Notes under the pieces: model-generated | What the model saw: only the letters and a program-made list of their open reading frames with translations | The model's database searches: none | What the model was told of the DNA's origin: nothing | Program-made: the position numbers and the translations under genes | Source: Bilabrum cf. latius | Lineage: Eukaryota | Assembly (NCBI GenBank): GCA_965178125.1 | Contig: OZ237748.1 | Span: 310,001 to 374,000, forward strand | Direction of reading: 5' to 3' | Length of the DNA: 64,000 nt | Shown here: one piece after another, positions 11,737-64,000 of the stretch | Layout of the letters: each line of letters opens with the position of its first letter | Position numbering within the stretch: the first letter of the stretch is position 1

Positions 11737-14700
11737 ATGTAAGATAGTGTTAATTTTATATTTGGCTGTTTGTACAACTCGTAGAGTCTGATACCGCTCC
11801 GTAGCAGCTGTTGTTACAGTGTGTATCCTGGCTACCTATGGTGCGCTGTGATGTCCTCGTGGATTCTATCCGCATGAGTCTGCTTCACGCGATACATAAA
11901 TTACTTACGTCAATTTTCAAGCTTCTCAGGGGAGACGCGCTTATATCAGCAGCCTCCAGTGGCAAGGTGGACGACCTGAGGGCTTGCCTGGATTCGGGAA
12001 CGGACATCGAATCCAAAGATAGCGTGAGATTGTGTATATCTGACCGGGCTTTTGGATTCCTTCTTGATTGATTTGAATGCTAAGACCCGAAGGTCCACGC
12101 ACAGGCTGTCACGGAGCTCATCAGCGATCGGATGACGGCAGTCCACCATTGGAGACCTGATGCACGCCATCGATTCATCGGCGAGCCAAATCAGGGGGCG
12201 AGTCGGGGGAGCTTATTTGATTCAGGTGCAATGGTGTGCGTACTTGACAGTGGCATGCACCTCTTGTTTTGCTTGCTCTCCGCGCCTGGCCATCAGCGGA
12301 TCCTCACCCCCCGCCACCAGGTTGCTCCCTTCCCTCGGGGTCTGCCACCCGCGGCTACCTACCAACGGTTAAGTCTTTCTTTAGTGCATCGCAGAGTGGT
12401 GAAACAGCAGCACATTTGGCTGCATACTACGGCAAGGCGGCTTGCCTGAAGCTGCTCATCGAGAGGGGCGCCAACGTGAACGCTGCCAGCAACGTGAGAG
12501 AGAAAGAGGCTGCCTGACCAATAGGGCGGGTTGTGGGCGGTAATTGGGATGTTTCATTTGGTTTGAGTGCGCATCAAACTGTTTGTACCGGTTCAAGTGG
12601 CTGACACGGCATCTAGCTAGCTCGTCGTCGATCGACCCGGGCCCCCGAGCAAGTGCTACCCGGGGGTGACTGACGAGGTCTCAAGGGGAGGCGCGATTTA
12701 GCATTGCTTTCTTGTGGATGCGGTCGAATGAATGTTTTCTGTTTTTGACATTGTATGTCTGCAAATATTGGTGCGCGGTAGTATTGCTATCGTTAAGCCC
12801 CGCCCGGCTGGCCCACGTGGCTCTCGTGCTGGGTGGGGCAGGTGGGTGGCTACTTGCAGGATGCGGATTCACCGGGATCGTGTCTGGGATTTCAAGGCGA
12901 ATGCCTATTATTTAGTTGACTTTGTGAACTAGCTATGTTCAAGGTTGGTTGTCGATCGATGGCAGCTCCCCGGGGGAGGACAGGACTGGCCTGTGTGACG
13001 AGCATTCAGCTCGATCCTCATTGCCTGGCTTGCGCCTCCGATGGGCAGAGTTCAACGAGTTTGCACTGATCAGTACATGCATAGTATGACATAGATATGA
13101 TAAATTTGAGTCATTTGTCTTTCAGGACCTGCACAGCCGGCGATGAGACTGCTGCCTGTCCCCCCAGAGGGCCCCTCGGCTATCTCAGCCCCCAGGCGGA
13201 TTCAGAGGCCGGGGCCGGTCCCTGTCGTGATGCAATGGCTTGATAGGAAGATTGGTGCATGTTTGGATTGGTTTTGATTTTAATGATTTTGTCCCTCGAG
13301 CGGGAATCGATCCGGGGACTGCGCCCCTAGGGCCCAGAGCGACTCCCACCGGTCCGTCCCAACGCCCCCCCCACACCCCCATCACCCGCCCCATGCCCAC
13401 ACACATCCACACCCATACCCACCCCAAGCACACCCCCTGCTCCCCCCCACCCCCTGTCTCCCATCCCCCCACCGCAGTATGGCAGCACACCCGCTCATAT
13501 GGCATCCGCGCGTGGGCACGATGATTGCCTTCGATTGCTGGTTGAAAATGGGGGGGACGTGCATGCGGTGAACAAGGTGAGAGAGAAAGACATATGTTGA
13601 GGGAGAGGTTGGTCTTGTGTGTGTGTGCTTGTGTGTTGGATGGGTGTGTGTGTCTGTTCGGCTTGGGATTGCCCGCTCCCGGGTCCGAGACCCGCTGGCA
13701 GGGGTCCTTCGCGGTGCTCCCGCTGCGTTGACGGATTGGGGCTGGACGCTAGTGCGCGTATCTCGGGCTGTAGGTATGGTATGCTATCATGGTTTGGACC
13801 CATCGGCGTGATTTTGGGAGCGCAATCCTGCGATCGGATTCGACTCCGGATCCGAATGGTCGCATGGGATCGCCGATCGGGAGCGATTGGTCGCAATGAT
13901 TAGGTTCGGAAAGCTTCAATCTTATCGAAATATGGATGATTTTGTTGATTAAGTCACCCATTGACGGATTGGCCGGTTCCGGAAGGCTGCAACTGCACTC
14001 GCCTGGCCAAGCCTTGACTGGTGCTCGATGGTCCTTTCCGTTCTCAAGCGGAGAGCGTTTGGCTCAATTCGCGGGGCGTATTATTTTCATTATAGTGTAT
14101 TTCGTCCTTTTTGCATGTTGTTGGAGTCGGGGGGTCATATCCAGCCGAGATGATCCTCCAGCTGTGGGTCCTTGCGAGAACAGTGGCCGTCCATGAGCGT
14201 TTGTTGGGCTATGAAGCGATGCTTGATGCATGATTTGGATGCATTGTTTGGCGATTTCGTTAATTCGAACTTGTTTGGGCCAGATCGATGGTGCATTTGA
14301 TGCTTGACGGGCCTTGAACTGTGTGTCTGAACGGCTCTGTCTGGTTCGTTCTGGCGAAGCTTCGCTGGCATCTGATCACCCGAGATTTTGGGCTGCTTTT
14401 CCAGTGGAAATCAATTTGCTTGGTTGGTTTGTATCTGGAGCCTGTATCAAATTACTTTGTGTGCGTGGAGCTTGCTGACAGTGCAACTGGATGCTGTATG
14501 ATCAGTTTTCTGCAGTCGTTTGAGCACAGCACCTGAACTCTGTGGATGCAGCTCGTCTTAATCGGCACTGCCTAGTCTGGAGCCGCAATGGATTCAAAGC
14601 AATGTATGTGTTTGGTTGGATTGCCGTTAGTGGTGGTGTGGCAGCCCACCTGGCGCTGCCTCTCGGAATCGGCTCGCTGCTCCGGGACCGCTGCCGCACC

Positions 14701-17700
14701 ACGCCTTGCACATCGGTGGATTATGTGTTCCATGGACTTAAACTCTGAAAGATCGATCGGCCAGGCAATTGCCTCAGATTTTTCATGTTGGCTCTTTGAC
14801 CTTTCAGAACCCTCCGATTCACCCGCAGAATGGAAACACCCCCCTGCACAGGGCAGCGTCCAATGGCAAGACCGCCTGCGCCACGATCCTCATGGAGGCA
14901 GGGGCCCGCAGGGACATCAAGAACAACGTGAGCTTCTACAGATGCACCACAACAGCACTTGATTCCCGAATATCCATCAAGCTATCCAAGGGATCGAACG
15001 ACCTCCCGTTCGTCTTTGACTCGTGCGACCCATCCTCTCTCCGTCGCTTCCTTTGATCAAGCAGGATGGCAAGACTCCAGTTTAGATGGCAGGTTCCGAG
15101 ACAGCTGCCGTCATCCGGTCTTTTCCCGCCAAATTCGTTGCCGATCTGCGAGACCAGTTGAGGCAGCGCGATGCCCAGGTGCAGACCAAGGACCAGCAGC
15201 TGAGGGAGCGCGATGCCCAGGTGCAGGCCAAGGACCAGCAGCTCGCCGCCGCCGCCGCCCAGCACCGCAATGCACTGCAGGCCAAGGACCAGCAGCTCGC
15301 CACCGCCGCCGCCCAGCACCGCAATGCGCTGCACTCCCGCCGCGCCCTGCAGCACGCCGGCCTGTTGCTGGCCCACGCCGCGGAAGAGGCCAGGGAGGTG
15401 CCCGAGGCAGCCGCGGGGGTGGCGGGGACGGGGGCGGGGGTAGGTGTGACGAGTGCGGTGCAGGGTGGTGAGGGTGGTGGGGTTGTCGCCGATGGAGCGG
15501 ACGAGGCCACCGCCGCTGGTGCTTCGGGAGAGTCGGTTGCAACCGGCAGCATGGCCCTCCTGGTGGCGCGGGGCACCGGCCGGGCGATCCTCGGTGGGCT
15601 GGGCGTGGATGCATCGGCGCAGGCAGAGCTGGCTGCGGGGGAGCAGCGCACTCTGGCTCGGGTGCACCTGGGTGTGATCGAGGAGAGGGGCATGGACAGG
15701 CGCAGCAGCGGGGGCCCGTCGGCAGTGGGCAACTGGACCAGGGAGCATCCTCCCCTGGTGCGGGGCCCCGACGGCCGTCTGGATGAGGCCTCCCTGGGTG
15801 CCCCCGCCGTGCTGGAGCGGCTGGACCAGGGCAGGATCAGGGTCCTGGACGGTGTCACGGGGCAGCCCGTGGACCGCAGCGGGGGCGATGGGGGTGTGAC
15901 GAGTGGGGAGGGCGGGGGGGCCGAGGCCCGTCGCGCTCGGCCCCTGCACTGGCGGGAGGGGGGCGCGCGTGGTGGGAGCGGGGGTGGTGTGACGAGTGGA
16001 GACCGCGGGGCCGCTTCGCCATCACCATCACCACCACAACCATCGGCGGCAGGGGCCAGCGCCGGTGCGGTGGGGCAGGGGTGCAACAGCGTGGTGTTTG
16101 CGATCGAGGCCGTGCATGGCGGGGATGGATCGCGTGGGGACCGTGAGGGTGCACCGCATGGTGGTGCAGTCGCCTTGGATGGAGGCGAATCTGCAGCTGG
16201 TCCCGGTGGGCCGTCCGCTGCATGGCCCGCTGGCTGGCAGGGCATTCTCAAAGGTGCACTGCCCATCGGGGTGCAGGGGCAGTACTATGAGCCCATGGCC
16301 AAGCAGCAGCAGAGGGACTGGCTGATGCCCGCGCTGCTGGGCCCCCGGAGAGGCACTCGCGGGGAGCCGGTGCTGCATGCGCACCCCAACGTGCTCCGCG
16401 TGCTGCACAGCTTCCTGGGCTCCTCCCAGCTGATGGTGCAGTGGGTGCCTGCCTACAACGACCAGCCCATGGCGCTGCGGCGCAAGACCACCTGGGTGGT
16501 CATGGAGCGGTTCCCCACCACGCTCAAGGGGGCCTTCGCGGCTGTCCGGGAGAAGGGGGGGCGCGTGTCGGGGCGGCAGGTGTGTCTGTGGCTGCTGCAG
16601 GTGCTGCAGGCGCTGCAGCACGCCCGGTCCCGCGGGGTGGTGCATCGGGACGTGAAGGCGGACAACGTGTTTCTGACGGCGGATGGTCGGGCCGTGCTGG
16701 GCGACTGGGGCAGCGGGCTGCTGCTGTACACGGGCGGCCTGTCCGTGCAGATCGACCGCACGCTCCAGGGCCTGGTGAACATCTAGAACGAGGTGCCTGT
16801 GCCATCGCAGGGGGCAGGTGTGACGAGTGACCTGATGCCCATCAACGAGGAGGACCCGTCGGCGTTCATCCGCGAGGGCCCCAAGGCCGGGCCAGGGGCA
16901 CCAATGGGAGGATCCGGAGGAAAGGGTGTGATGAGTGAGAGCAAGCCCGCGCCTGCTGCCTCCGCCGGTCATGTACCCGCATCACCGGCGGGAATTCAGG
17001 CCCAGTCGCTGTTCCTGGGGAGCGGATCGGGGGCTCATCCAGAGGCGTTCTCGAGGGCTCAGGTGGGCGAGGGTGGTGCTGGTGTGGCCCAGGGTCCCGA
17101 GGTGCATGCCCGCGCACAGGGGGGGCAGCAGGGGGCCAAGGACCCGTGGGGGAGGGTGATGCTGACCGCGGCGCAGGTGTACGCCTACAGTGACGCGTGG
17201 GCGGCGGGTCGCATGATGTGGGAGAAGCTGGCGGAGCAGGGGCGGGCTGCAGGGGGCGAGGCAGTGACGCTGGATGGCCTGGCATTCGGGCAGGAGGGTG
17301 GGGGCGGCACGTCTCTGCCGATGCTGCCGCCCGAGGCAGGCTGCCCCCCCCAGCTGGAGGCGGTGCTGCGGGGGCTGCTTTAGGCCCGCCCCCAGGCCCG
17401 GCTGCCCCCGGAAGAGGCCATCCGCGCCCTCACGGCGATGCTCTACGGGAAGCACGGAGGGACTGTGACGAGTGGCGATGGGGGTGCTGCCGATGGTGCA
17501 GATGCGGGGGAGGCTGAGGAGGATCCCGCGGGGGGTGGGTCCGTGGACGTGGTGGAGGCGTGGGTGCGGGAGCAGCGGCTGCGGCTGTGCGAGGCCGAGC
17601 ACCGGCGGGCCCCTCTGTCGCGGGCCGCGCTGGTGGGTCACCGGGCAGCCCTCGAGGCGGAGGCAGGGAAAGCAGTGTCAATCAGATGCCGCCCCTGCGA

Positions 17701-17806
17701 GTGGCTCGAGCTTTGCATTGGACGGTGCCAGCAAGAGGCAGACGAGGGGCAGAAGGGGGAAGGGGTGGGGGCATACGGGGACAGGGGGCGGAAGTGGAAT
17801 GGATGA
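11737..17806 (+). CDS. Ankyrin gene G1: ankyrin repeats + coiled coil + PINK1-like Ser/Thr kinase (type A), C-terminus truncated or chimeric
   Basis: Inferred exons AT 11737-38, 11930-12023, 12395-12493, 13478-13576, 14829-14927, 15065-17806, all with GT-AG. The last exon is open through TAG15083/16784/17381. Kinase motifs GQGCNSVVF, LKG, HPNVLRV, HRDVKADN, DWG, SDAWAAG. Confidence 0.82.
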
Positions 17807-18520: not shown

Positions 18521-18594
18521 TTGAATGTGCCCAGCCGCCGCTAACGAGACTATCCTCTTGAAAGGCGCTGGACCCCTTGAGGCAGCAGTTTGAG

Positions 18595-21500
18595 ATGTAA
18601 GATAGTGTGTGATTGTATTTGATTATCGATACAACTTGTTGAGTCTGATACCGCTCCGTAGCAGCTTTTGTATCCTAGCTATCTATGGTGCGTTGAGATC
18701 TCCTCGTGGATTCAATCCACATGAATCTGCTTCACGCGATACATATAATATATAAGTAAATTTCCAAGTTTCGCAGGGCAGCCGCACTTCTCACAGCAGC
18801 TAAAAATGGCAAGGTGGACGACCTGGGGGCCTGCCTGGATTCGGGAACGGACATCGAATCCAAAGATAGCGTGAGATAGAGCTCTACTGGTCGAGCTGTT
18901 AAATTCTTTTGTTGAGTTGATAGTAATGTGAAGACCTGAAGGTCCACGTACAGGCTGTTTCGGAGCTCACCAGTGATGGTATGACTGCGATCCACCATTG
19001 GAGACCTGATGCACGCCATCGATCCATCGGCGAGCTGAATTAGGGGGCAAGTCGGGGAAGCTTATTTGATTCAGGTGCAATGGTGTGCGTACATGACAGA
19101 GACATGCACTTCTGGTTCTGCATGCTCTCCGCGCCTGGCCATCAGCGGATCCTCACCCCCCGCCACCAGGTTGCTCCCTTCCCTCGGGGTGTGCTTACCA
19201 TACACGGCTACCCACCAAAGGTTACATCTGTCTTGGCTCATCGCAGTATGGTCGGACAGCAGCATGGTGGGCTGCATCCTATGGCAAGGCAGACTGCCTG
19301 TAGCTGCTCATCGAGAGGGGCGCCAACGTGAATGCTGCCGACATCGTGAGAGAGATAGAGGCTACCTGGCCAACAGGACGGGTTGTAGGCGATACTTGGG
19401 ATATTCTAGTTGGCTTGATGGCTTAGTATACTATTTGCACCCGTTCAAGTGGCTGACACGACATCTAGCTAGCTCCTCGTCGATCGAGCCAGGCCGGACC
19501 CCCGAGCAGGTGCTCCCCGGTGATTGATGAGGTCTCAAAACGAGGCGCGATTGTTTTTTGTTGTCTTGATGATGCGGTCGATTGTATGTTGGTATGATTA
19601 AACCATGCATGTCTTCAAGTATTGGTGCTCGGTAGTATGGCCATGCCTCAGCCCCGCCCGGCTGGCCCACCTGGCTCCCGTGCTGGTTGGGGCAGGTGAG
19701 TGGTGGCTTGCGGGATGCGAATTCACCCGAGTTGTGTCTATGTTTAGAAGGCGAATGCCAATTACTTGGTCGGCTTTGTATACTTCCTTTGTTCAAGGTT
19801 GGTTGTTGATCGATGGCAGCTCCCCGGGGGAGGACAGGATTGGCCTGTGTGACGAGCATTCAGCTCGATCCTCATTGCCTGGCTTGCGCCTCCGATAGGC
19901 GGAGTTCAATGAGTTTGCACCGATCAGTACATACATAGTACAACATAGATGAGATAAATTTGAGTCATTTGCCTTTCGGGACCTGCACAGCTGGCGAGGC
20001 GGCCGCTGCCTGTCCCCCCAGAGGGCCCCTCGGCTATCTCAGCCCACAGGCGGGTTCAGAGGCCGGGACCGGTCCCTGTCGTGATGAAATGGCTTGATTG
20101 GAAGATTGGTGTATGTTTGGATTGGTTTTGATTTTGATAATTTTGTCCCTCGAGCGGGAATCGATCCGGGGACTGCGCCCCTAGGGCCCAGAGCGACTCC
20201 CACCGGTCCGTCCCAACGCCCCTCCCACACCCCCATCACCCGCCCCATGCCCGCACACACCCACACCCACACCCACCCCAAGCACACCCCCTGCTCCCCC
20301 CCACCCCCTGTCCCCCATCCCTCCACCGCAGAATGGCCAAACACCCGTCCATGTGGCATCCTACCATGGGCACGATGACTGCCTTCGACTGCTGCTTGAG
20401 AATGGGGGGGACGTGGATGCGGTGGATGAGGTGAGAGAGATAGAAATATGTTGAGGCAGAGGTTGGTCTTGTGTGTGTGTGCTTATGCGTTGGATTGGTG
20501 TGAGTGTCTGTCCGGCTTGGGATTGACCGCTCCCGGGTCCGAAACCTGCTGGCAGGGGTCCTTCGCGGTGCTCTCGCTGCGTTGATGGATTGGGCCTGGA
20601 TAGTAGTTCGCGTATGTTGGTCTGTAAGTATGGTTTGGTATCATGGTTTGGACCCATCGGCGTGATTTTAGGAGCGCAATCCTGCGATCGGATTCGACTC
20701 CGGAGCCGAGTGGTCGCATCGGATCGCCGTTTGGGAGCTATTGGTCGCTATGAAATGGTTCGAAGAGCTTCCTTCTCATCAAAATGTGGATGATTTTCAA
20801 TGTTAGGTCGCGCATCGACGGATTGGCCGGTTCCTGAAGGATGCAACTGCGCTCGCCTGGCCAAGCCTTGGCTAATGGTCGATGGTCCATTCGATTTTCC
20901 AGCGGAGAGCGTTTGGCTCTGTTCGCGGGTCTGATTGTTTTCATCTTAGTGTAGTGCGTCCTTGTGGCATGTTCTTGGAGGCGGGGTGACATATCCAACC
21001 GCGTAGATCCTCCTGCTGTGGTAGCTCGCAGGATAGCGGGCCTCCATGTGCGTGTGTTCGGCAAAGAAGCGATGACAGATGCCTGATTTGGATTTGATGA
21101 ATGGTTTTTCGGAGGAATCGAAGCCGACCAGGCCCGATTGATGGGTGCAATGGTTTCTTGGCGGGTCTTGGTATGTGTGTCTGAACGGTTCTGTCTGGTT
21201 CGCTTTAGCGAAGCCTCGCTGGCATCGGATCACACCCCATGCTCCCCCCCCTCCCCACTCCCTGACTCCCATCCCCCCACCGCAGGATAGCTGGACACCC
21301 GTTCATGTGGCATCCTACCATGGGCACGATGATTGCCTTCGACTGCTGCTTGAGAATGGGGGGGACGTGGATGCGGTGGATATAGTGAGAGAGATAGAAA
21401 TATGTTGCGGCAGAGGTTGGTCTTGTGTGTGTGTGCTTATGCGTTGGATTGGTGTGTTTAGCAGTCCGGCTTGGGATTACCCACTCCCGGGTCCGAAACC

Positions 21501-24059
21501 TGCTGGCAGGGGTCCTTCGCGGTGCTCTCGCTGCGTTGATGGATTGGGCCTGGATAGTAGTTCGCGTATGTTGGTCTGTAAGTATGGTTTGGTATCATGG
21601 TTTGGACCCATCGGCGTGATTTTAGGAGCGCAATCCTGCGATCGGATTCGCCTCCGGAGCCGAGTGGTCGCATCGAATCGCCGTTTGGGAGCTATTGGTC
21701 GCTATGAAATGGTTCGAAGAGCTTCCTTCTCATCAAAATGTGGATGATTTTCAATGTTAGGTCGCGCATCGACGGATTGGCCGGTTCCTGAAGGATGCAA
21801 CTGCGCTCGCCTGGCCAAGCCTTGGCTAATGGTCGATGGTCCATTCGATTCTCCAGCGGAGAGCGTTTGGCTCTGTTCGCGGGTCTGATTGTTTTCATCT
21901 TAGTGTAGTGCGTCCTTGTGGCATGTTCTTGGAGGCGGGGTGACATATCCAACCGCGTAGATCCTCCTGCTGTGGTAGCTCGCAGGATAGCGGGCCTCCA
22001 TGTGCGTGTGTTCGGCAAAGAAGCGATGACAGATGCCTGATTTGGATTTGATGAATGGTTTTTCGGAGGAATCGAAGCCGACCAGGCCCGATTGATGGTG
22101 CAATGGTTTCTTGGCGGGTCTTGGTATGTGTGTCTGAACGGTTCTGTCTGGTTCGCTTTGGCGAAGCCTCGCTGGCATCGGATCACACCCCATGCTCCCC
22201 CCCCTCCCCACACCCTGACTCCCATCCCCCCACCGCAGGATGGCGAAACACCCGTTCATTTGGCATCCTACCATGGGCACGATGATTGCCTTCGAATGCT
22301 GCTTGAGAATGGGGGGGACGTGGATGCGGTGGATATAGTGAGAGAGATAGAAATATGTTGCGGCAGAGGTTGGTCTTGTGTGTGTGTGCTTATGCGTTGG
22401 ATTGGTGTGAGTGTCTGTCCGGCTTGGGATTACCCACTCCCGGGTCCGAAACCTGCTGGCAGGGGTCCTTCGCGGTGCTCCCGCTGCGTTGATGGATTGG
22501 GCCTGGACAGTGATCTGTCACTGCGAGATTGTTTCGTATTGGTCGACAGTCCTCGCTACGATGCTGTGGTCTCAGGGCGGTGGCGTATTACCACCTTTGT
22601 AGACACGCGTGTGTCTAGTGACCGACCTGGCTCTATCTCCAGGTCATGTGCTAGTGGTCGGGCAGCCCTGATATGGGCTGCCGAGTCACCATGCCTCACG
22701 GCTCTGCCAAGACTTGGATTGTCTTGGCAAAGCGGTTATAACCGCTAACAGCGCCAACCAACAGCCTTGTATCGATTCACTGGCGGTCAGTACTTGCCCC
22801 GCCGTTAGACAGTTGTGCCGGGCAGGGTCAGCTGTTCGTTCGCGAACGTTCAGCTGATACTGGCGTGATCCTGTGATCGACCGGCGAGGTCTCATTCCGG
22901 TTTGAGTCTACACTGGGGAAAGAGAGAGATCAGCCTCTGCGCTAGACAGGATTAGCAAAGAAATACAGAAGCAGCCTTAGCCAGTAGCTTTCTTCTGTGG
23001 CACGGTCTGCGACGCCAAGATGCGACAAGCATTACAGGATCGCGTATGTTGGTCTGTAAGTATGGTTTGATAGCATGGTTTAGACCCATCGGCGTGTTTT
23101 TGGGAGCACAATCCTGCGATCGGATTCGACTCCGGATCCGAATGGTCGCATTTGATCGCCGTTTGGGAACTATTGGTCGCTATAAAATGGTTCGGAGAGC
23201 TTTATTCTTATCAAAATGTGGATGATTTTCAATGTTAGATCGTGCATCGACGGATTGGCCGGTTCCTGAAGGAAGCAACTGCGCTCGCCTGGCCAAGCAT
23301 TGGCTTATGGTGATTTATGGATTTATACTGTGAAAGATCGATCGGGGGGTAATTGTATGTGATAATCAAAGTTGGTGCATGACATTTTAGAACCATCCGA
23401 TTCAACCGCAGCATGGAGACACTCCCCTTCACAGGGCAGCGTGCTATGGCCGCACCGCCTGCGCCACCATCCTAATGGAGGCAGGGGCCCAAAGGAACAT
23501 CAAGAACAAAGTGAGCTTCCACAGCTGGGTTACAACAGCACTTGATTCCTACATTTCCGTCATGCTGCCCATAGAATCACAGGACACTCCTGTACACAAA
23601 TCACCCCCCTTGCTGTCGTGCCCACGCTACCATGCCTATTTTCCTCTGCTTTGCTACTTGGCCGCCTCTCCTCTGCCGCTCTGCCTCGCTTCCTTGATCG
23701 AGCAGTATGGCAGAACTCCCGCTGAGGCGGCAGACGCAAGGGGCAAGTCCGAGACAGCTGCCATAATCCGATCATACATCCCTGCTCGAGTCGAAAGAGC
23801 CATGTGCTGGAGGCGGGCAGTGGAGGCTAAGAGGGATGCATCGATGGTGTTCAGGGCAGCGAGCACTGGCAGGCCACTGGAGCTTGAAAAGAGGCTGAGG
23901 CTGGGCAAGCTGGCTGGTGGGCTGGAGATCAAGGGAATAGCGATACATGGCAGTGGTAGTTCTAGGCTGGTGCTTCCACTGGAGGCAGCCAGGCTGGGTG
24001 GGCACGACGATTGCGTGAAGCTGCTGCAGGAGGCCTGGAGATGGATTCTAGGCTGGTGA
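18595..24059 (+). CDS. Ankyrin gene G2 (7 repeat-bearing exons, short tail)
   Basis: Exons 18777-18870, 19247-19345, 20332-20430, 21286-21384, 22239-22337, 23412-23510, 23706-24059; third-type exon triplicated in ~954-bp units. Confidence 0.8.
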
Positions 24060-24308
24060 GGAGGAGGAGGCAGATCCCGCGGGGGGCGGGTCCGTGGACG
24101 TGGTGGAGGCGTGGGTGCGGGAGCAGCGGCTGCGGCTGTGCGAGGCCGAGCACCGGCGGGCCCCTCTGTCGCGGGCCGCGCTGGTGGGTCACCGGGCTGC
24201 CCTCGAGGCGGAGGCAGGGGCGGGGCAGGAGCGGGGAGGGGCCCGTGGGGAGGCGGGCACGGGGCCGGCCAGCGGGGCGGGGGCGGACGATCCAGGGCCC
24301 GATGAGTC

Positions 24309-24486
24309 TGCTGGTGCTGGTGCTGGTGCTGGTGCTGGTGCTGGTGCTGGTGCTGGTGCTGGTGCTGGTGCTGGTGCTGGTGCTGGTGCTGGTGCTGGTG
24401 CTGGTGCTGGTGCTGGTGCTGGTGCTGGTGCTGGTGCTGGTGCTGGTGTTGGTGCTGGTGCCGGTGCTGGTGCTGGTGCTGGTGCT
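24309..24486 (+). repeat. (GCTGGT)n coding microsatellite (poly Gly-Ala); paralogous tracts at 44291-44326 and 58045-58152; (GGTGCA)n tracts at ~25000, ~44846 and 58663-58747
   Basis: Directly visible; tract length differs between paralogs. Confidence 0.95.
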
Positions 24487-42685: not shown

Positions 42686-42747
42686 TATTTTGTATTTGTT
42701 TCTTTAATTCACAATTATGGATACGCAATTGACCTTGTTGGAACGTC

Positions 42748-51100: not shown

Positions 51101-53999
51101 AAGATCGATCGGCCGGGCAATTGCCTGAGATATTCCATCTTGGCTCATGACCTTACAGAACCCTCCGATTCAACCGCAGTGGGGAGACACTCCCCTTCAC
51201 TTGGCAGCATCCTGTGGCAAGACGGCCTGCGCCACCATCCTCATGGAGGCAGGGGCCCGCAGGGACATCAAGAACAACGTGAGCTTCCTCAGATGCACCG
51301 CAATAGCACTTGATTCCCAAATGTCTATCAAGCTATCCAAGGGATCGAAGAACCCTCCCACCCACGAATCCACCCCCCGTGCATCTTTGATCCCATGACC
51401 ACTCCTCTCTCCCTCACTTCCTTTGATCGAGCAGGATGGCAAGACTCCCGCCGAATATGCACACTCCAATGGCAAGTCCGAGACAGCTGCCGCCATTCGG
51501 TCGTTCACTCGGAGCTCCCCTCCCATCGGTGCAGGTGCCTCTGGCGGGGCATCCAGAAGTGAGCTGGCTCGTGTGAAGCAGCAGCTGAGGGAGCGTGATG
51601 CCCAGGTGCAGGCCATGTAGCAGCAGCTGAGGGAGCGCGATGCCCAGGTGCAGGCCAAGGACCAGCAGCTGAGGGAGCGCGATGCCCAGGTGCAGGCCAT
51701 GTAGCAGCAGCTGAGGGAGCGCGATGCCTAGGTGCAGGCCAAGGACCAGCAGCTGAGGGAGCGCGATGCCCAGGTGCAGGCCAAGGACTTGCATCTAAGG
51801 CAGCACTAGCAGCAGATCCATGCCCTCACCCATCGGACCCCACTCGGGGAGGCATGTCACGCGCTGGCCGCCGATGTGGATGCTGGGCTACTGCCGAGTC
51901 CGGTGGAGGGCGCGGGGGACGATCCTGCGGCCATCGGGGCGGCGCTGCGGGCCCGGCTGGGGCTGGGCGAGGGGGCGGCGGGCGAGGCCGTGTGGAGGCA
52001 GCTGGCTCTGTGCATGGGCCGGCACCGGGCTGCGCTGCAGGACCTGGAGCTGGGGGCCGTGGCGGGCGGGGACTGGTTCGGGCATCTGCACGGGCGGCTG
52101 CAGTACGCCTCAGGGGGGGGCGGCTGTCTGGATCTCGGGACGGTGCTGCCGCCCGAGGAGCTGGAGACTGGGCTCATCGGCGGGCGAGGTCGAGTGATAG
52201 AGGCAGGGCCGGGCAAGCGGCGCCCCGGCCGCGCGTCTGTCTTTGCTGCCGGCCAGCTGCCCGACTCTGCCTCGATGGCCGCGATCGAGGCCGGGCGCAT
52301 CCCTCCGCTGAACCTGCCGGCGGGCAAGGAGGGGGCAAGTCAAGGAGTCAACGGCTTCGTGTTCGCGGTGGAGGTGGCACGGCGGGGGGCGAGGGGTGCT
52401 GGCGGGGCAGGGGCAGAGGGAGGGGATGGGTCTGGGAGTCGATCGCCCGTGCGGCTGGCCCTGAAAGGGCTGCTTCCTCTGGCACCCGACAGATCTGGGT
52501 ACTCAAAGCAGATGATCGGGACCCAACGAGAAGAGTGGAGGGTGCCTCAGGTGGTGGGCGGGCACAGGAACATCGTGCCCGTTAGACACGCGTTCTTCGG
52601 CTCTGCCATGCTAGTCGTCCCCTGGATCGGTGACTACCTGCAGCTGGCAGCGGTTGCACGCCGCACCACCTGGCTGGCCATGCCCCTGTACCCCACTAGC
52701 CTCGAGTCATCCGTGAAGGCAATGCCGTGCACGGGACCCAGGGAGGCGGCGCTGTGGCTGCTGCAGGCACTCGAGGCGATCCAGCATACGCTGAGGATGG
52801 GGGCGGTGCACCGGGACATCAAGGCGGACAACTTCTTCCTGGCCGGGGATGGTCGGTTGGTGCTGGGCGATTTCGGGGCGGGCTGTCTGCTCTTCCATGG
52901 GGGCAGGGCAGCCGAGCTGGAGGTGGAGTTCCAGGAGAGGCAGCGGCAGCAGGCGCAGGAGCACGCGGCCGCCATGGGTGCAGGTGCAGGTGCAGCTGAT
53001 CCCGAGATGGGGGCAGCAGGTGCAGCAGCAGGGGGCGATGAAGAGGAAGAAGAGGAGGAGGAGGAGGAGGAAGCAGGTGAGGTGCAGATCGTGCCTGGCG
53101 AGGCATTCGAGCAGGCAGGGGAAGGATCCGAAAGAACTCGATTCATGCTTCGCGACATCAACGAAGGTGGTGCGGGCGACAGTCGATCTCCTGAGCTGAT
53201 GGCCATGGGCAAGCTGAAGGTCACCAAGGACTCGAGAGGCAAGCCGCTCGAGACACTGGCCCAGGCCTACGAGATGTCCGATGCGTGGGCCGCGGCCAAG
53301 ACCGTGTGGGGGCTGCTGGCGCAAGGGGATGCGGCTGCGTCTGCCCTCCCCGGCAACGACAGGCTGTACAAGGACTCTGCCATCCCGAGGCTGCCCCAGG
53401 CCGGCAGGGAGCTGGAGGCCATCCTGAGGGGGCTGCTGCAGTCGCTGCCCAGCAAGCGGCTGCGGCCCGAGAGCGCCATGGCCGCCCTGCGAGCCCTGCT
53501 GTACGGGCCCGGGAGCTGGGAGCAGGTGCAGCGGGCGGCTGGAGAGGGTGAGGCTGCTAGCGGTGGGATAATGGGCGGGTCCAGCGGGGGCAGTACTGGG
53601 GCTGCTTCGGGGGCGGGAGCGGGGGATGCTGCATCGGCGACAGCAGCGGGTGCTGGAGCGGGTGGGTCTGGGCTGGTGGAGCTGGTCCGGGGCCAGCTGT
53701 GGGAGTGCGCGGCTGTGGATGCGGGGCGCAGGGGGGTGGAGGGCGTGCCTGCTGCTGGATTGTGCTGGGGCCTGGCGGGGCCTGCTCCCATGGTGCGGCT
53801 GCCGATCGGGGAGGAGGCGTATGGTGCGTTCGGGTGGGGCGAGCGGCGGTGTGTCCCAGGAGAGGCGAGCCTGTGGGACCGGTTCCTGCGGCGGGAGGTG
53901 CTGCTGCGGGGGGGCGGGCCGGATGGGTCTGCGGCTTGCATGGCCAAGGACTGCAGGGAGCTGGTGGAGGCGGTGAGGAGGTTCGGGCAAGGAGAGTGA
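48107..53999 (+). CDS. Ankyrin gene G5: ankyrin repeats + coiled coil + PINK1-like kinase (type B)
   Basis: Exons 48299-48392, 48744-48842, 49825-49923, 51180-51278, 51435-53999. Motifs ALKG, HRNIV, HRDIKADN, DFG, SPE, SDAWA. Confidence 0.85.
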
Positions 54000-54616: not shown

Positions 54617-57600
54617 ATGTAAGTATCGTTCTCAAGGTATCGGTTGAACTAGTCGAGTCTGATACCGCTCCGTAGTAGCTGTTGTATCCTAGCTACCCAT
54701 GTTGCGTTGAGATATCCTCGTCGATTCGACCCACATGGGTCTGCTTGATATGATGCATACAACATCTAGATTATTCTTCAAATTTAACAGGGGTGATGCA
54801 CTTCGAAGAGCCGCCGAACGTGGCAGGGTTGATCACCTGAGGGCCTGCCTGGATGCTGGGATAGACATCGAATCCAAAGATGGCGTGAGATTGTGTACTA
54901 CTTGTCGAGCTTTGAGATGGCTTCTCAAGTTGGTATTTATATTAAGGGCGGAAGGTTTGCGCGTAAAATGTGATGGATCTCACCAATGATGGGATGAACG
55001 ATCCACCACTCCCAGAGCTCACCAGCATTGGGATGACGATCTGCCATTGGAGCAAGGCAGACCTGATGTACGCCATTGATTCATCGGCGAGCTAGAGAGG
55101 GGGGGGGGGGGGGGGGCTATTATGTGTACATGGCAGTGAAAGGCACCTCTTGTTCTGCTGGCTCTCCTCGCCTGGCCATGAGCGGATCCTCATCCCCCGC
55201 CACCAGGTTGCTCCCTTCCCTCGGGGTCTGCCACCCACGGGAACCTTCCGATGGTTTCATATTTCTTTGGTTCATCGCAGGGTGGTTGGACTGCTGTATA
55301 CCATGCAGCGTGGGAAGGCAAGAGGGACTGTCTTAAGCTGCTTATCGAGAGGGGCGCCAACGTGAACGCTGCCATGCTTGTGAGAAAAGAGGTTGCCTGC
55401 TCAACGGGGCGGATTGTAGGCGGTTGCTTTGATATTGAAATTGGATTGGGTGTCTGGCATGCTTTATGTATCCATTAAAGTGGCTGACATGGCATCTGAA
55501 TGGCTCCTCATCGATCGAGCCTGGCCTCCGAGCAAGTCTGGTGTCTGATAAGTCTCAATAGGAGACTCGATTTGTTCCTGATGTCGTGTAGATGCGTCCT
55601 TTTGTTTACTAGAATGAATCGATAATGCAGGTCCTCTAGTTATCGAACGAGGTTGTTTTCCCATCGCTCAGCCCCGCCCGGCTGGCCCACTTGGCTCCCG
55701 TGCTAGGTGGGGCAGGTGAGTGGTGGCTTGCAGGATGCGGATTCACCAGTATATTGTATGGGTGTTCGAGGCGAATGTCTATTGCTTGGTCGACTTAGTG
55801 TACTAGCTCTGCTCTAATTACGTTCTTCATCTATGACAGCTCCCCGGGGGAGAACAGGGCTAGCATGTGTGCCAAGCATTCAGCTCGATCCGTACTATCC
55901 ATCGCTTGTGCCTCCGGTGGGCACAGCCCAATGAGTTAATACTGGTAGAAATATTCATCGTATGTCTTTCATGATGCGATAAATCTGTTTTATTTGTCTT
56001 TCAGGACGTCCACAGCCACCAAAGCCACCGCCCTTTGTCCCACTAGAGGGTCCCTCGGTTGTCTCGACTCACAGGCAGATTCAGAGGACGGTACCGGTCC
56101 CTGTTGTGATGAAATGGCTGGACAGGAATTTTGGTGAATGTTTGAATTGATTTTGATTTTGGTAGTATTGTCCCTCAAGGGGACATTTGCCATGGGACTG
56201 CGCCTCTTCGGCTCAGACCGACTCCCACTGGTCCGTGCCAATGGCCTCCCCGACCCCAGCACACGCCCCATTTTCACACACAGCTACAGCCACACGCACC
56301 CTTAGCACATTCCCTACTCCCATTTACCCGCTGTCTTCCCTATCCCCCGCAGGATGGTCACACACCTGTTCATGTGGCATCCTTGAATGGATAGAAATAT
56401 TGCCTTCGAATGCTGATTGAAAATGGGGGAGACGTGAATGCGGTAGATGAGGTGAGACAGATGCTGAAGGAGAGGTTAGAATTGTGTATGTGTGTTTACT
56501 TGTGGATTGAATGGGTGGTTGTGTGTCTGCTTGGCTTTGGATCGCCCGCTCCCGGGTCTGAGAACTGCTGACAGAACCCGCGCTGACTTAGTTGTGTCTA
56601 GTCGCACAGAGAAGGATCGACTGCTTCCGAAAGGATGCAACTGAGTTTGAACGGCTTAGCCTTTGTTGGTGGTTTATGGTCCGTTCGATGCTCAAGCGTC
56701 AAGCGTTTGGCTCTACAAGCAGATCTGATAGTTTTCATTTTAGTGTAGAATGTCGTTTTGTTATTACCCAGAGGCAGGGGGGGCATCCCGGCAAATAGAT
56801 CCACCTGCTGTGGTTGCTCGCGAGCACAGTGGGTGTCTATGAGCGTGTGCTTGGCAATGAAGCGATGCCTGATGCATGATTTAGATTTGTTGTTTGGCAT
56901 TTGTTATGACTTGAAGTTATTAAGGCCAGATCGATTGTGCGTTTGATGTTTGACGGGCCTTAGACTGTGTGTCTGAACGGCTCTGTCCGGTTCGATCTGG
57001 CGAAGCTTTATGAGAATCGAATCACCCAAGATCATTATGTTTGGCTGCTTTGCAAGCCAAATACATGCTAGTTTATGAACTTTCAGTACCCTCCGATTCA
57101 ACCGCAGGATGGAGACACTCCCCTCCATGATGCAGCGAGCGAAGGCTTCGCTACATGCGCCACCATCCTCATGGAGGCAGGGGCCAGTCGAGATATCAAG
57201 AACTACGTGAGCTTGCACAATTGCATCACCACAGCTATACATTCTCTCATATCCATCATGCTGCCAGATGAATTGAAGGACACTCCTACCCACGAATATA
57301 ACCCCCGCGTTCCCTGACGCCATGACTCCTCCTCGCCCTTAAACTTCATGGATCGAGCAGGCTGGAAAGAGTCCTGCAGAGGAAGCAGACTCAAGCGGCA
57401 AATCAGAGACAGCTGCAGCCATTCGGTCGTTCATCCCTTCTCGAGTCGGTAGAGTCATGTGCTGGAGGCGGGCATTGGAGGCCAAGAGGGACGCATCAAT
57501 GGTGTTCATGGCAGCGAGCACTGGCAGGCCCATGGAGCTAGAAAAGAGACTGAGGCTGGGCAAGCTGGCTGGTGGGTTGCAGATCAAGGGAATAGCGATA

Positions 57601-57699
57601 CATGGCAGTGGGAGCTCTAGGCTGGTGCTTCCACTGGAGGCAGCCAGGCTGGGTGGGCACGACGACTGCGTGAAGCTGCTGCAGGAGGCCTAGGGATGA
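54617..57699 (+). CDS. Ankyrin gene G6 (short tail; most diverged introns)
   Basis: Exons 54791-54884, 55281-55379, 56353-56451, 57108-57206, 57361-57699. Confidence 0.8.
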
Positions 57700-57799
57700 G
57701 GTCTAGGCTGGTGCTTCCACTGGAGGCAGCCAGGCTGGGTGGGCACGACGATTGCGTGAAGCTGCTGCAGGCGGCCCAAGGATGAGGTCTAGGCTGGTG

Positions 57800-59538: not shown

Positions 59539-62530
59539 ATGTAAGAAAGTGTGTGTCTTTATATTAGTACCGATACAATTTGTTGAGGCTGACAGCGCTC
59601 CGTAGCAGCTGTTGTATCTATCCTATCTATCTATGGTGCGTTGAGATATCCTCGTGGATTCAATCCATATGAGTCTATTTGACATGATACATAGGATATC
59701 AAGGTAAATCATTGAAAATCACAGGGGAGACGCACTTCGAGCAGCAGCCAGATATGGCAAGGTGGATGACCTGAGGGCCTGCCTGGATTCAGGAACGGAC
59801 ATCGAATCCAAATATGGCGTGAGATTGAGTACTACTTGTCAAGCTGTTGGATAAGTTCTTGAACTGATGTTTATGTGAAGGGAATTATGTTTGCGTACAG
59901 GCTGTCACGGAGCTCACCATTGATCGGGTGACGAGCCACCTTTGGAGCGAAGCAGACCTGATTGATGTATGCCATGAATTCTTCCATGAGCCAGAGTGGC
60001 GGGCTATTCGTGAAAACGGATTTCCTTCAGTGCTACTGCTGCTTTGTATGCATGGCAGTGACATTCACCTATTGTTCTGGTTGGTCTCCGCGCCTGGTCA
60101 CTAGCGGATCCTCACCCCCCGTCACCAGGTTGCTCCCTTCCCTCGGGGTCTACCACCCACGGCTACCCACCAATGGTTACATATTTCTTCAGTGCATCGC
60201 AGTATGGTTGGACAGCTGCATATTTCGCTGCACGTTATGGCAAGACAGACTGCCTGAAGGTGCTCATCGAGAGGGGCGCGAACGTGAACGCTGCAAGCAA
60301 CGTGAGAGAGAAAGGGGCTGCCTGGCCAACAGGGGAAGGGGGGGTGAAGGCGGCACCTGGGATATTTGATTTGGCTTGAGAGATAATTATACTGTTTTTA
60401 CCCGTTCAAGTGGCTAGCATAGCATCTAGCTAGCTCCTCGTCTATCGAGCCGGGCCGGACCCCCGAGCTACTTGCAGGATGCGGATTCATCCGAATTGTG
60501 TCTGGAATTTCAAGGCAAATGCCTATTAATTGGTTGAATTTGTATACTTCCTTTTTTCAAGTTTGGTTGTCGATCGATGACAGCTCCCCGGTGGAGGACA
60601 GGACTGGCCTGTGTGACGAGTATCAGCTCGACCCTCATTGCCTGGCTTGCGCCACCGATGGGCGGAGTTCAATGAGTTTGCACTGATGAGTACATACATA
60701 GTATGACATAGATGTGATTAATTTGAGTCATTTGTCTTCCAGGAACTGCACAGCCGGCGAGGCTGCCGCTGCCCGTCCCCCCAGAGGGCCCCTCGGCTAT
60801 CTCAGCCCCCAGGCGGATTCAGAGGCCCGGGCCGGTCCCTGTCGTGATGCAATGGCTTGGTAGGAAGATTGGTGTATATTTGGGTGGGTTTTGATTTTAA
60901 TGATTTTGTCCCTCGAGCGGGAATCGATCCGGGGACTGCGCCCCTAGGGCCCAGAGCGACTCCCACCGGTCCGTGCCAAAGCCCCCAACACCCCCATCAC
61001 CCGCCCCATGCCCACCCAAACCCACCCCAAGCACACCCCCTGCTCCCCCCCCACCCCCTGTCTCCCATCCCCCCACCGCAGAGTGGCTGGACACCCGTTC
61101 ATTAGGCATCCGCGGTTGGGCACGATGATTGCCTTCGATTGCTGCTTGAAAATGGGGGGGACGCGAATGCGGTGGATAGGGTGAGAGAGAGAGACATATG
61201 TTGAGGGAAAAGTTGGTCTTGTGTGTGTGTATGCTCGTGTGTTGGATGGGTGTGTGTGTCTGTCCGGCTTGGATTGCGCGCTCCCGGGTCCGAGACCCGC
61301 TGGCAGGTCCCTTCGCGGTGCCCCCACTGCATTGATGGATTGGGGCTGGACAGTTGTGCACGTATCTCGGGCTGTAGGTATGGTATGGTATCATGTTTTG
61401 TACCCATCGGCGTGATTTCGGGGGCGCAGTCCTGCGATCGGATTCGACTCCGGATCCGAATGGTCGCATCGGATCGCCGATCGGGAGCTAGTGGTCGCTT
61501 TCAAATGGTTCGGAGAGCTTTATTCTTGTCAAAATGTGTATCATTTTCTGTATCTAGTCATCTTTTGCCGGATTGACCGGTTCCGGAAGGATGGAACTGC
61601 GCTTGCCGGGGCAAGCAATGGCTTCTGGTCGATGCTCCATTCGATTCTCAAGCGGAGAGCGTTTGGCTTAGTTCGCAGGTCTGACTGTTTTCATCTTAGT
61701 GTAAATTGTCCTTTTGTCATGTTGTTGGAGGCGGGGGTTCGTATTCTGCCGAGTTGATCCTCCTGCTTGGGTTGCTCGCTGCCGGACCGCTGCCGCACAA
61801 GGCCGAGCACATCGGTGGCAGATATGTTGGGTGGAGCTAAGCTCTGAAAGATTTGTCAGCCAGGTAATTGCCTCAGATATTTCAGGTTGGCTCATGTCCT
61901 TTCAGTACCCTCCGATTCAACCGCAGACTGGAGACACCCCCCTGCACAGGGCAGCGTACTGGGGTCGCACCGCCTGCGCCACGATCCTCATGGAGGCAGG
62001 GGCCTGCAGGGACATCAACAACAACGTGAGTTTGTTCAACTGCATTGCAATAGCTCCTGAGTTTCACATACCAAGCATGCTATCCTAGGTATCAACGGAC
62101 ACTCCCACGCACGAATCCATCCCCAAATCATTCCCCCCGCTACCTTGCCTCCTCACCTTTGTCCTTGTCTCCCCCTTCCTTGATCGAGCAGAATGGCAGG
62201 ACTCCCGTGGAGATGGCAGCTTAGTGCCGCTGCCTCGAAACCGCTGCCGCCATTCGGTCATTCATTCCATCTCGAGTCCGAAGGGCCATGTGCTGGAGGC
62301 GGGCAGTGGAGGCCAAGAGGGACGCATCAATGGTATTCAGGGCAGCGAGCACTGGCAGGCCCATGGAGCTTGAAAAGAGGCTGAGGCTGGGCAAGCTGGC
62401 TGGTGGGTTGGCGATCAAGGGAATAGCGATACATGGCAGTAGGAGCTCTATGCTGGTGCTTCCACTGGAGGCAGCCAGGCTGGGAGGGCACGACGAGTGC
62501 GTGAAGCTGCTGCAGGAGGCCTAGGCATGA
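59539..62530 (+). CDS. Ankyrin gene G7 (short tail)
   Basis: Exons 59725-59818, 60203-60301, 61082-61180, 61927-62025, 62192-62530; in-frame TAG in two exons. Confidence 0.8.
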
Positions 62531-63305: not shown

Positions 63306-64000
63306 ATGTAAGATGGTTTGTGATTATGTTTGATTACCGTTACAACTTGTTGAAGCTGATACCGCTTTGTAGCAGCTGTTGTTACAGTGTTGTATCCTGG
63401 CTACCAATGGTGCGTTGCGATGTCCTCATGGATTCGATCCATATGAGTCTGCTTGACGCTACACATAAAATTTCTACGTCCATCGTCATACTACACAGGG
63501 GAGATACACTTCGAACAGCAGCCAAGTATGGCAACGTGGACGCCCTGAGGGCTTGCCTGGATTCGGGAACGGACATCGAATCCAAAGATAGCGTGAGATT
63601 GAGCTCTACTGGTCGGGCTTTTGGATTCCTTTTTGGGTTGATATACGTGTGTAGACGAGAAGGTCCACGCACAGGCTGTTTCGGAGCTCGAGAGTGATGG
63701 GAAGAAGATCCACCATTGGAGACCTGTTGCACGCCATCGATTCATCAGCGAACTAGATTAGGGGGGGGCTTCTAGGAAACTGATTTCAAACAGTTGCACT
63801 ACTGCTTTCTGTACATGACCGTGGTATGCACCTCTAGTTTTGCGTGCTCTCCGCGCCTGGCCATCAGCGGATCCTCACCCCCAGCCACCAGGTTGCTCCC
63901 TTCCCTCGGGGTCTGCTTGCCATCCACGGCTACCTACCTACGGTTTAGTCTTTCTTTCATGCATTGCAGAGTGGTAGGACAGCAGCATGGTGGGCTGCAT
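63306..64000 (+). CDS. Ankyrin gene G8, 5' part (runs off the window)
   Basis: Exons 63499-63592 and 63970 onward are paralogous to the other copies. Confidence 0.75.

Follow-up and report, generated by a model that had tools for sequence, protein, structure and literature searches.

A tandem array of ankyrin-repeat genes in Bilabrum cf. latius with a diversified binding face: a candidate protist recognition locus

What is a protist doing with eight near-copies of one ankyrin-repeat gene, side by side, alike in framework and introns and different at a handful of codons? The question is raised by a stretch of 64,000 nucleotides (nt) from Bilabrum cf. latius (contig OZ237748.1 of assembly GCA_965178125.1, positions 310,001 to 374,000 of the forward strand), which we call the window and whose first letter is position 1 throughout. 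Families of innate recognition proteins are known in detail from animals, plants, and fungi, and hardly from most protist lineages. A first-pass annotation made from the letters alone read this array as pathogen-sensing receptors coupled to kinase outputs, diversified by selection and adjacent to an endogenous virophage. We find a tandem family of ankyrin binders that is expressed and partly decaying, and in which positive diversifying selection acts on the canonical binding face. The account we favor, and hold to be rather probable, is that these are tandemly amplified intracellular ankyrin binders whose paralogs recognize different versions of a fast-changing partner.

Self-BLASTN resolves eight tandem units on the + strand, starting near 11.6, 18.4, 29.7, 38.1, 48.0, 54.4, 59.3, and 63.25 kb, with ankyrin parts that are 71-89% identical in DNA when introns are counted in, in agreement with the eight paralogs and similar introns first described. 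The units are genes A to H, of which the eighth is truncated by the window end, leaving seven complete genes (Table 1). A motif scan, tblastn with the exons of gene A, and a read-out of exon borders give 32 ankyrin exons, namely 8 ank1, 7 ank2, 10 ank3, and 7 ank4. An AG acceptor and a GTGAG donor flank every one of the 32, and 0 of 32 has an in-frame stop. The ank2-ank4 exons are 99 nt long and in phase 0 without exception (24/24), and the ank1 exons are all 94 nt (8/8) and lie downstream of a split ATG. The motif GAGAT-GT, with the hyphen at the exon border, is found in 8/8 units about 170-190 nt 5' of ank1; from this conservation we infer that the start codon is split by the first intron, GAGAT being joined to the single G before ank1. 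The variable strings that had been quoted for the second repeat are located in the exon read-out in 7/7 cases and those for the fourth-type exons in 6/6, with the seventh fourth-type exon, in gene G, repeating HRAAYWG.

Long open reading frames (ORFs) of the window appear only with TAG as a sense codon. In the 42-nt coiled-coil repeats of the array, TAG stands in some copies at sites that are CAG in others, and the long last exons of genes A, C, and E contain 3, 7, and 4 in-frame TAG, no TAA or TGA, and a terminal TGA. The TAG/CAG alignment together with these exons makes code 15 (TAG = Gln) the right reading, as had been chosen at the outset. A tRNA scan of the window gives no tRNA gene, and hence no suppressor tRNA is seen there.

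Pfam Ank (PF00023) matches all five of the 33-residue exons tested, with 31.6-35.4 bits (cut-off 21.1) and E = 1e-8 to 2e-7, running from profile position 1, 2, or 3 to 30, 32, or 33 of 33. Because single exons span the profile almost end to end, one exon is one ankyrin repeat. The same profile gives 0/3 matches for the 31-residue ank1 exon, a 21-residue piece of ank5, and a 112-residue short last exon. The predicted recognition module is 5 stacked repeats, ank1-ank4 with one exon each and a capping ank5. Neither a signal peptide nor a membrane segment is evident, the protein opening directly with ank1. After ank4 there are two kinds of genes, long (A, C, E) and short (B, D, F, G). Repeat position 2 shapes the ankyrin beta-turn; the Gly found there, otherwise invariant, is replaced in two exons, by Val in D ank4 (41834-41932) and by Ser in B ank3b (21286-21384). 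A metagenome DNA pattern search with the ank3 framework gives 0 matches, and the ank3 exon with contiguous flanks has no match among longer proteins.

The number of repeats is itself variable, with one ank3 copy in A, D, E, F, and G, two in C, and three in B. In gene B the exon-plus-intron unit is triplicated and the copies are 96% identical; judged by sequence, the extra ank3 repeats are tandem duplications of such a unit. All tblastn matches in the window are on the + strand, with no reverse-strand ankyrin exon, and a single weak intronic remnant is seen at 14413-14472 (E = 0.016). On a larger scale, duplication extends to a block of about 18 kb that takes in the tail of a short form, an ORF on the minus strand, and the long form that comes next, from which it follows that the array grew partly through copying of long/short pairs. 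The kinase remnant behind D is 96% identical to A, while the ankyrin part of D is nearest to B; whole genes and gene pieces have been reshuffled by unequal recombination.

The main point of interest is where the variation sits. In the Pfam Ank register it falls at positions 1, 3, 8, 11, 12, 32, and 33, the mean pairwise amino acid difference being 0.58-0.84 at positions 1, 3, 8, 11, 12, and 33, 0.40 at position 32, and 0.00-0.37 elsewhere. The six most variable positions, in rank order, are 1, 11, 12, 8, 33, and 3. The positions randomized in DARPins, which we take to be 2, 3, 5, 13, 14, and 33, correspond to 33, 1, 3, 11, 12, and 31 in the Pfam register, and the top six contain 5/6 of them (hypergeometric P = 1.5e-4; Mann-Whitney P = 0.0017), so the early claim that variation concentrates on the binding surface stands. 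The ANK-N5C library randomizes positions 2, 3, 5, 10, 13, and 33 according to passages of PMC4308713, and all six top positions lie inside the union of the two designed sets, which bears out the overlap with engineered libraries. Position 7, the His of TPLH, also varies in ank1 and ank2, and position 31, equal to designed position 33, is invariable. Trp and Tyr make up 37/216 residues at hypervariable positions against 6/824 in the framework and 2.6% in the long exons, so that the enrichment of aromatics noted from the sequence is real. Positively selected sites on the concave binding face are described for fungal NLR ankyrin repeats in passages of PMC4986451 (Dyrka et al. 2014).

Variability alone would also be produced if the surface positions were the least constrained and conversion homogenized the rest, with no positive selection at all. 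Passages of PMC4308713 lend this some weight, since natural ankyrin repeats reach their highest entropy at the designed-library positions 2, 3, 5, 10, and 13. Relaxation can at most bring a site to the neutral rate, and here that rate is exceeded about twofold. Nei-Gojobori counts over seven genes and four exon types, with 150-nt flanks as the intron comparison, put nonsynonymous divergence (dN) at 0.548 for the DARPin positions, which were chosen a priori, and at 0.670 for the data-driven set, compared with a framework dN of 0.07-0.11, an exon synonymous divergence (dS) of 0.287, and an intron-flank divergence of 0.262; whole-intron alignments give 0.19-0.25. The bootstrapped ratio of nonsynonymous diversity (pN) at surface codons to intron diversity (pi) is 1.77 (1.32-2.18), with 0/1000 replicates at or below 1.

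For a likelihood test, a two-class codon model was written for this analysis and run on trees from the flanking introns only. Its dN/dS ratio omega is 3.37 with the DARPin set (likelihood-ratio statistic 42.5, P = 7e-11) and 3.43 with the ANK-N5C set (P = 8.5e-11), and rises to 4.3 with the data-driven one; the framework has 0.23-0.42, and about 0.41 alongside the two designed sets. The exon neutral rate is 0.86-0.99 of that of the intron tree. Each of the four exon types taken singly has omega between 2.3 and 8.5 (P = 0.028, 3e-4, 5e-7, and 0.01), and three control sets of six other positions have omega of 0.07-0.23. The dN/dS comparison with intron divergence that had been proposed as a check thus finds surface omega above 1 and variation that is uneven across positions.

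A further comparison is between recent duplicates. B ank3a and ank3b differ at 7/18 a-priori codon bases, 3/81 other exon bases, and 23/844 intron bases (P = 7e-7), and C ank3a and ank3b at 6/18, 5/81, and 94/1197 (P = 0.002), a 4- to 14-fold excess at the surface over their own introns. Comparisons with the third ank3 copy of B are uninformative because its downstream intron is not homologous past about 325 nt. The aromatic enrichment is also unexpected from drift in a GC-rich genome. With surface dN above the neutral rate, we regard pure relaxation of constraint as very improbable, and conclude that the binding face is under positive diversifying selection beyond relaxed constraint.

The manner of change deserves separate attention. 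Codon pairs differing at 2 or 3 bases number 327/777 at hypervariable positions versus 157/2962 in the framework, a contrast that also speaks for more than relaxed constraint, and 5 of the first 9 bases are changed between ank3a and ank3b of B. Chicken immunoglobulin genes are diversified by gene conversion, and a comparable process, either patch-wise conversion from paralogs elsewhere or targeted hypermutation, might rewrite the surface codons here and be, in place of selection, the main source of the pattern. These clustered adjacent-base changes speak for it, as do other paralogs outside the window that carry other surface letters, visible as a 39-letter ank3 start and as loose ends of ank5 (below). 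Donor tracts were not identified within the window, however, and tracts of 3-9 bases confined to binding-face codons in four exon types would themselves need selection or a dedicated mechanism. We consider a mainly mutational origin improbable. Adenine-specific mutagenesis of the diversity-generating-retroelement type was rejected on inspection of the variable codons, the changes there not being limited to one base type.

To ask whether these genes are used, four public sequencing runs, X1-X4, were mapped onto 11600-20600 in 30 bins, with zero-cover regions in X1-X3 not counted as evidence. The depth of X1-X3 is concentrated on exons, with 7, 12, and 13 of the 30 bins empty, and X4 covers 30/30 bins. 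Among 13 rows of joints, 5 have GT..AG borders, none of them in X4. Four of these 5 lie exactly at predicted borders: the end of ank1 joined to B ank2; A ank3 to ank4 in X1; B ank2 to ank3a in X1 and X3; and a row recorded as 'goes back 91', which is B ank3a to ank3b, in X1-X3. The fifth, 14603 to 14829 in X2, uses the ank4 acceptor with an upstream donor of unplaced identity. An alternative exon or start may be what lies at 14558-14701 within intron 3 of gene A, a piece that contigs of X1 and X2 contain, X2 being the run that joins 14603 to 14829.

The other rows are of mixed kinds. Two are small intron deletions seen in X4 only. Two, 15465 to 15889 and 15554 to 16147, occur in X1 and X4 alike, where a repeated 13-mer has copies nearby. 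In the remaining four, framework stretches from different repeats are connected through other or unknown letters, as would be expected from transcripts of paralogs outside the window. Of these eight joints, several are probably contigs of other paralogs or repeat-induced joins. One with 39 other letters reads as an ank3 start absent from the ten ank3 exons of the window, and loose ends after ank4 read as further ank5 variants, so the family is larger than the window. At least some of its members are spliced as predicted, with the library type a guess; the early expectation of transcription and splicing is upheld by joints at predicted exon edges in X1-X3 and their absence from the DNA-like X4, in runs whose type is not on record.

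Downstream of ank4, the last exons of A, C, and E have 913, 856, and 854 codons and encode the capping ank5, heptad-like RERDAQVQAKDQQL repeats, a protein kinase domain, and a C-terminal region, under purifying selection (dN/dS = 0.42). Pfam Pkinase (PF00069) is matched in A, C, E, and the D remnant with 36-42 bits (cut-off 31.7) and E = 1e-9 to 7e-11, in a match limited to profile positions 69-148 of 263 that covers the catalytic loop. Across 11 aligned sequences, from the window and from 8 environmental relatives, no change is seen in HRD, in the catalytic Asn, or in D(F/W)G, the last motif being DFG in C and E and DWG in A. PINK1 is the best Protein Data Bank (PDB) match of both kinase subtypes at E = 1e-13 to 3e-13, followed by other families at 6e-9 and 2.5e-6; the aligned region extends from helix C as far as DFG, another short stretch lies in the C-lobe, and 122-125 residues align well. 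PINK1 is the best solved relative, and the window kinases may belong to its family. The kinase of the long forms is probably active and PINK1-like, its activity being a prediction.

An exhaustive protein search with the kinase finds 711 proteins at E <= 0.001 and 24 at <= 1e-10. The closest are environmental fragments of both subtypes at 40-63% identity; among more distant relatives are mollusc proteins, one with N-terminal ankyrin repeats (P0022), and two proteins carrying a ubiquitin domain (P0015, P0019). The 80 metagenome loci matched with the kinase alignment cover short catalytic-loop stretches only at 26-61% identity, and were set aside as generic kinases. A protein word search with residues 16-560 of the A long last exon gives no match. 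Pfam scans of the long last exons and tails give only Pkinase, PK_Tyr_Ser-Thr, and coiled-coil-type families. The proposed coupling to kinase outputs thus applies to A, C, and E, 3 of the 7 complete genes, and fails for B, D, F, and G, which end at TGA after a last exon of 112-117 residues. A piece of an OTU-like cysteine protease lies on the minus strand near the PINK1-like kinase genes (25717-26106), either by coincidence or through some ubiquitin-related link.

These relatives suggest another account, in which the paralogs are substrate or adaptor modules for endogenous targets (for instance, where the kinase is PINK1-like, ubiquitin-like or organelle proteins that differ from one paralog to the next), with positive selection after each duplication and no non-self recognition. 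PINK1 as the closest solved relative, the ubiquitin domains of P0015 and P0019, the ankyrin-plus-kinase proteins of unknown role in molluscs such as P0022, and the lack of any immune-type domain in the Pfam scans all accord with it. However, surface codons diverge even in duplicates whose introns are only 2.7-7.9% apart, Trp and Tyr are enriched at those codons, and copies in the array are born, truncated, and lost; this combination of surface divergence, aromatics, and turnover fits an open-ended arms race better than a few settled specificities. We judge endogenous targets to be unlikely. In either case the locus is a clean natural experiment on the evolution of ankyrin specificity.

The last exons of the short forms B, D, F, and G have 112-117 codons ending at TGA and are under purifying selection (dN/dS 0.24-0.51). 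Their last ~75 residues form a module conserved in six environmental proteins (P0178-P0183, compared with 42086-42421), where it sits behind unrelated, non-ankyrin N-terminal regions, and for that reason it looks like a portable domain. AlphaFold models the exon with a predicted local distance difference test (pLDDT) score of 72, and the Foldseek matches listed from the PDB are mostly ankyrin-repeat proteins or DARPins with a best E of 0.16 and none at 0.001 or better, a hint that the module may be ankyrin-like.

Pieces of long-form genes follow B, D, and F. In the kinase remnant behind D the N-terminal part is missing, the break carries no acceptor site, and the tail is shifted in frame when compared with B and F. 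The tails of B and F themselves are homologous to the post-kinase region in another frame, with WW-like motifs recognized by eye; the 24064-25335 frame behind B has Gly-Ala microsatellite runs and two of these motifs. The B and F tails have dN/dS = 0.61, versus 0.92 in a control frame, which is weak constraint. The minisatellites after C and E (45 nt) and after D and F (86 nt) consist of the end of the coding region including its TGA stop. A 13-mer, GGTGTGACGAGTG, occurs 15 times in the window with at most 1 mismatch, versus 0.04 expected, at 15443, 15893, 15986, 16817, 16925, 24607, 43349, 43457, 43991, 44444, and 58270 on the + strand and at 28059, 28791, 46245, and 47118 on the minus strand. 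On both strands it is always sense to the local open frame, encoding G-V-T-S, and pairs 93 and 108 nt apart bracket in-frame segments. A role as an intron border was discarded, contigs of X1 passing three copies unspliced.

Returning to the favored account of paralogs that bind versions of a fast-changing partner, framework and introns stay alike among paralogs while the beta-turn and helix-1 face residues are driven apart by positive selection, and each paralog would bind its own version of the partner. The partner would most likely be a non-self protein, from a virus, a parasite, or a conspecific. In the long forms, binding would alter coiled-coil-mediated assembly and kinase activity, and the short forms would act by way of the C-terminal module common to them, or else in partnership with the long ones. 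Non-self recognition, whether immune or allorecognition, would be the most economical account of open-ended diversification. A fuller proposal is a germline repertoire for non-self recognition on a scaffold not known to serve this purpose elsewhere, with hypervariable ankyrin modules wired to a PINK1-like kinase or to the shared C-terminal module as a signaling part, long and short forms duplicated as pairs, and binding-face codons diversified by patch-wise conversion or mutation from further paralogs, in effect a natural DARPin library against viruses or parasites; as a whole we think this unlikely.

Several points weigh against reading the array as a set of recognition proteins. The non-self role is something we infer. 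The sample is one genome with 7-10 copies per exon type, and paralogs recombine, which makes a single tree per exon type an approximation. If conversion homogenized the introns after the surface codons had diverged, omega would be inflated, although conversion sparing 3-9-base patches at exactly the surface codons would need selection or a dedicated mechanism anyway. That the variable residues lie on the surface is read from the repeat register and from passages of PMC4308713 and PMC4986451. The library type of X1-X3 is a guess, none of them being on record as RNA and X1 being flagged 'probably DNA', and 8 of the 13 joint rows are not GT..AG. The kinase N-lobe matches profiles weakly and has large low-complexity inserts, and AlphaFold models of the kinase region from 11 sequences are poor (mean pLDDT 48.5). 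Pfam scans of the long last exons and tails find no NACHT/NB-ARC, TIR, or death-fold domain. Of the D kinase a remnant is left, and the tails of B and F are possibly dead. Part of the array is decaying.

Upstream of the array, the first 9.5 kb of the window are AT-rich (GC content 0.30-0.35, compared with 0.51-0.70 in the remainder) and hold a virophage-like element. Its major capsid protein ORF, 1138-3054, matches Pfam MCP_V20_C, a Sputnik-type capsid domain, at E = 3.2e-7 and 30.4 bits (cut-off 27), and 4703-7531 encodes a primase-polymerase/helicase. Penton, packaging ATPase, and protease genes, which are further virophage hallmarks, were not identified in the part of the element inside the window. 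All three of its ORFs (142-1125, 1138-3054, 4703-7531) are open only with TAG as sense. They contain 5, 5, and 11 TAG versus 1, 0, and 1 CAG and no in-frame TAA or TGA, and they end at TAA, TGA, and TAA; with TAG outnumbering CAG, this parasite of giant viruses appears adapted to the host code, in which TAG is Gln and TAA still a stop. A search of viral_contigs with the capsid protein finds no relative. A 718-residue ORF without a Pfam match lies between the element and gene A, whose first exon it overlaps; inspection by eye suggests for its C-terminal part a likeness to the endonuclease of a non-long-terminal-repeat retroelement. The adjacency to a virophage is therefore correct in that a virophage-like element lies upstream, and is weakened in that it is a single case with an ORF of another kind between. 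The element is real, and nothing seen in the window ties it functionally to the ankyrin array. Two minus-strand ORFs elsewhere, 27685-28896 and 45871-47223, are 90% identical, have a sub-threshold match to the RRP5 S1 domain, and were duplicated along with the long/short pairs; the latter carries an extra 75-81-nt tandem repeat.

Table 1. Coordinates of the ankyrin genes and neighboring features in the window
Feature	Position	Strand	Remarks
Gene A, long form	11737..17806	+	split start: AT at 11737-8, then G at 11930
Gene A exons	ank1 11930-12023, ank2 12395-12493, ank3 13478-13576, ank4 14829-14927, last 15065-17806	+	
Gene A last exon content			ank5 cap, coiled coil, PINK1-like kinase (predicted), C-terminal region, stop TGA
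Gene B, short form	18595..24059	+	
Gene B exons	ank1 18777-18870, ank2 19247-19345, ank3 20332-20430 / 21286-21384 / 22239-22337, ank4 23412-23510	+	
Gene B last exon	23706-24059	+	117 residues, putative ankyrin-like C-terminal module, stop TGA
Open frame downstream of B	24064..25335	+	homologous to long-form post-kinase C-terminus; frame differs from B last exon
Gene C, long form	29790..37409	+	kinase with HRD and DFG, coiled coil, stop TGA
Gene C exons	ank1 29982-30075, ank2 30452-30550, ank3 31537-31635 / 33211-33309, ank4 34584-34682, last 34839-37409	+	
45-nt minisatellite after gene C	37366..37861	+	11 copies; unit is the last 15 codons of C including TGA
Gene D, short form	38338..42424	+	first intron donor GTGGGA
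Gene D exons	ank1 38520-38613, ank2 38989-39087, ank3 40061-40159, ank4 41834-41932 (Gly2 to Val), last 42086-42424	+	
86-nt tandem repeat after gene D	42337..42679	+	4 copies; unit is the end of the short-form last exon including stop
Truncated kinase remnant behind D	42744..44776	+	96% identical to A 16212-17668
Gene E, long form	48107..53999	+	
Gene E exons	ank1 48299-48392, ank2 48744-48842, ank3 49825-49923, ank4 51180-51278, last 51435-53999	+	
45-nt minisatellite after gene E	53956-54150	+	4.3 copies of C-type unit
Gene F, short form	54617..57699	+	tail remnant 57802-59064
Gene F exons	ank1 54791-54884, ank2 55281-55379, ank3 56353-56451, ank4 57108-57206, last 57361-57699	+	
86-nt repeat after gene F	57612-57799	+	2.2 copies of D-type unit
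Gene G, short form	59539..62530	+	
Gene G exons	ank1 59725-59818, ank2 60203-60301, ank3 61082-61180, ank4 61927-62025, last 62192-62530	+	
Gene H, cut by window end	63306..64000	+	split start and ank1 63499-63592 only
Virophage-like element, cut by window start	1..9500	.	ORFs 142-1125 (+), 1138-3054 (+), 4703-7531 (-)
718-residue open frame	9593-11749	-	4 TAG; between virophage-like element and gene A
OTU-like cysteine protease piece	25717-26106	-	between genes B and C; Pfam E 6e-8
ORF with weak RRP5-S1 match	27685-28896	-	copy at 45871-47223 (-)

A binding face that changes about 3 times faster than neutral DNA, together with a virophage-like insertion in the genome, makes the array a concrete and testable candidate for protist recognition. 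If recognition is its role, the scaffolds used as variable binders (Ig, LRR, WD40, TPR, and fungal NLR ankyrin) gain an ankyrin-kinase architecture without a NOD domain. The layout of one repeat per exon with tandem exon duplication is also a simple genetic route to changes in repeat number. Full-text literature searches listed no paper on such an ankyrin-kinase family; the systems compared below share parts of it.

The ankyrin repeats of fungal NLRs, as described in passages of PMC4986451, are like those of the array in having a near-identical framework, few hypervariable and positively selected positions, and polymorphism in repeat number. They differ in that the fungal repeats are C-terminal to NACHT/NB-ARC in one continuous coding region, whereas the array has no NOD domain in Pfam scans, an N-terminal ankyrin module with one exon per repeat, and as partner a coiled coil plus PINK1-like kinase or none. 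Diversity in the same fungal passages runs across repeats within one gene; here it runs across tandem paralogs.

The ROCO-LRR and NB-ARC-TPR genes of Ectocarpus, argued in passages of PMC3341825 (Zambounis et al. 2012) to be candidate pathogen receptors, share with the array one repeat per exon, diversifying selection, high rates of gene birth and death, and variable exon number. Those passages describe LRR (72-nt exons) or TPR where the array has ankyrin (99-nt exons), and shuffled and reverse-strand exon copies in introns where the array is confined to the + strand and has tandem exon duplication instead. The output domains are also other ones, and the array is without the ROC domain.

The DARPin and ANK-N5C libraries, going by passages of PMC8683736 and PMC4308713, have the same fixed 33-residue framework with variation at beta-turn and helix-1 positions, so that nature reached nearly the same variable positions as engineers chose. 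The libraries are man-made, contiguous, and intron-less, while the natural family also varies position 32 and does not vary 31. Among kinases, PINK1 (9kox, 9eih, 5oat, and others) is the best solved relative and likewise has large inserts; the window kinases have no mitochondrial targeting or transmembrane N-terminus, and have ankyrin repeats and a coiled coil in its place. The mollusc ankyrin-kinase P0022, from Patella, has N-terminal ankyrin repeats and then a kinase, 36% identical over the matched stretch, and is distant and uncharacterized. The locus combines features of the fungal NLR ankyrins and of the repeat-per-exon genes of Ectocarpus, with an N-terminal variable module followed by a kinase or a shared tail.

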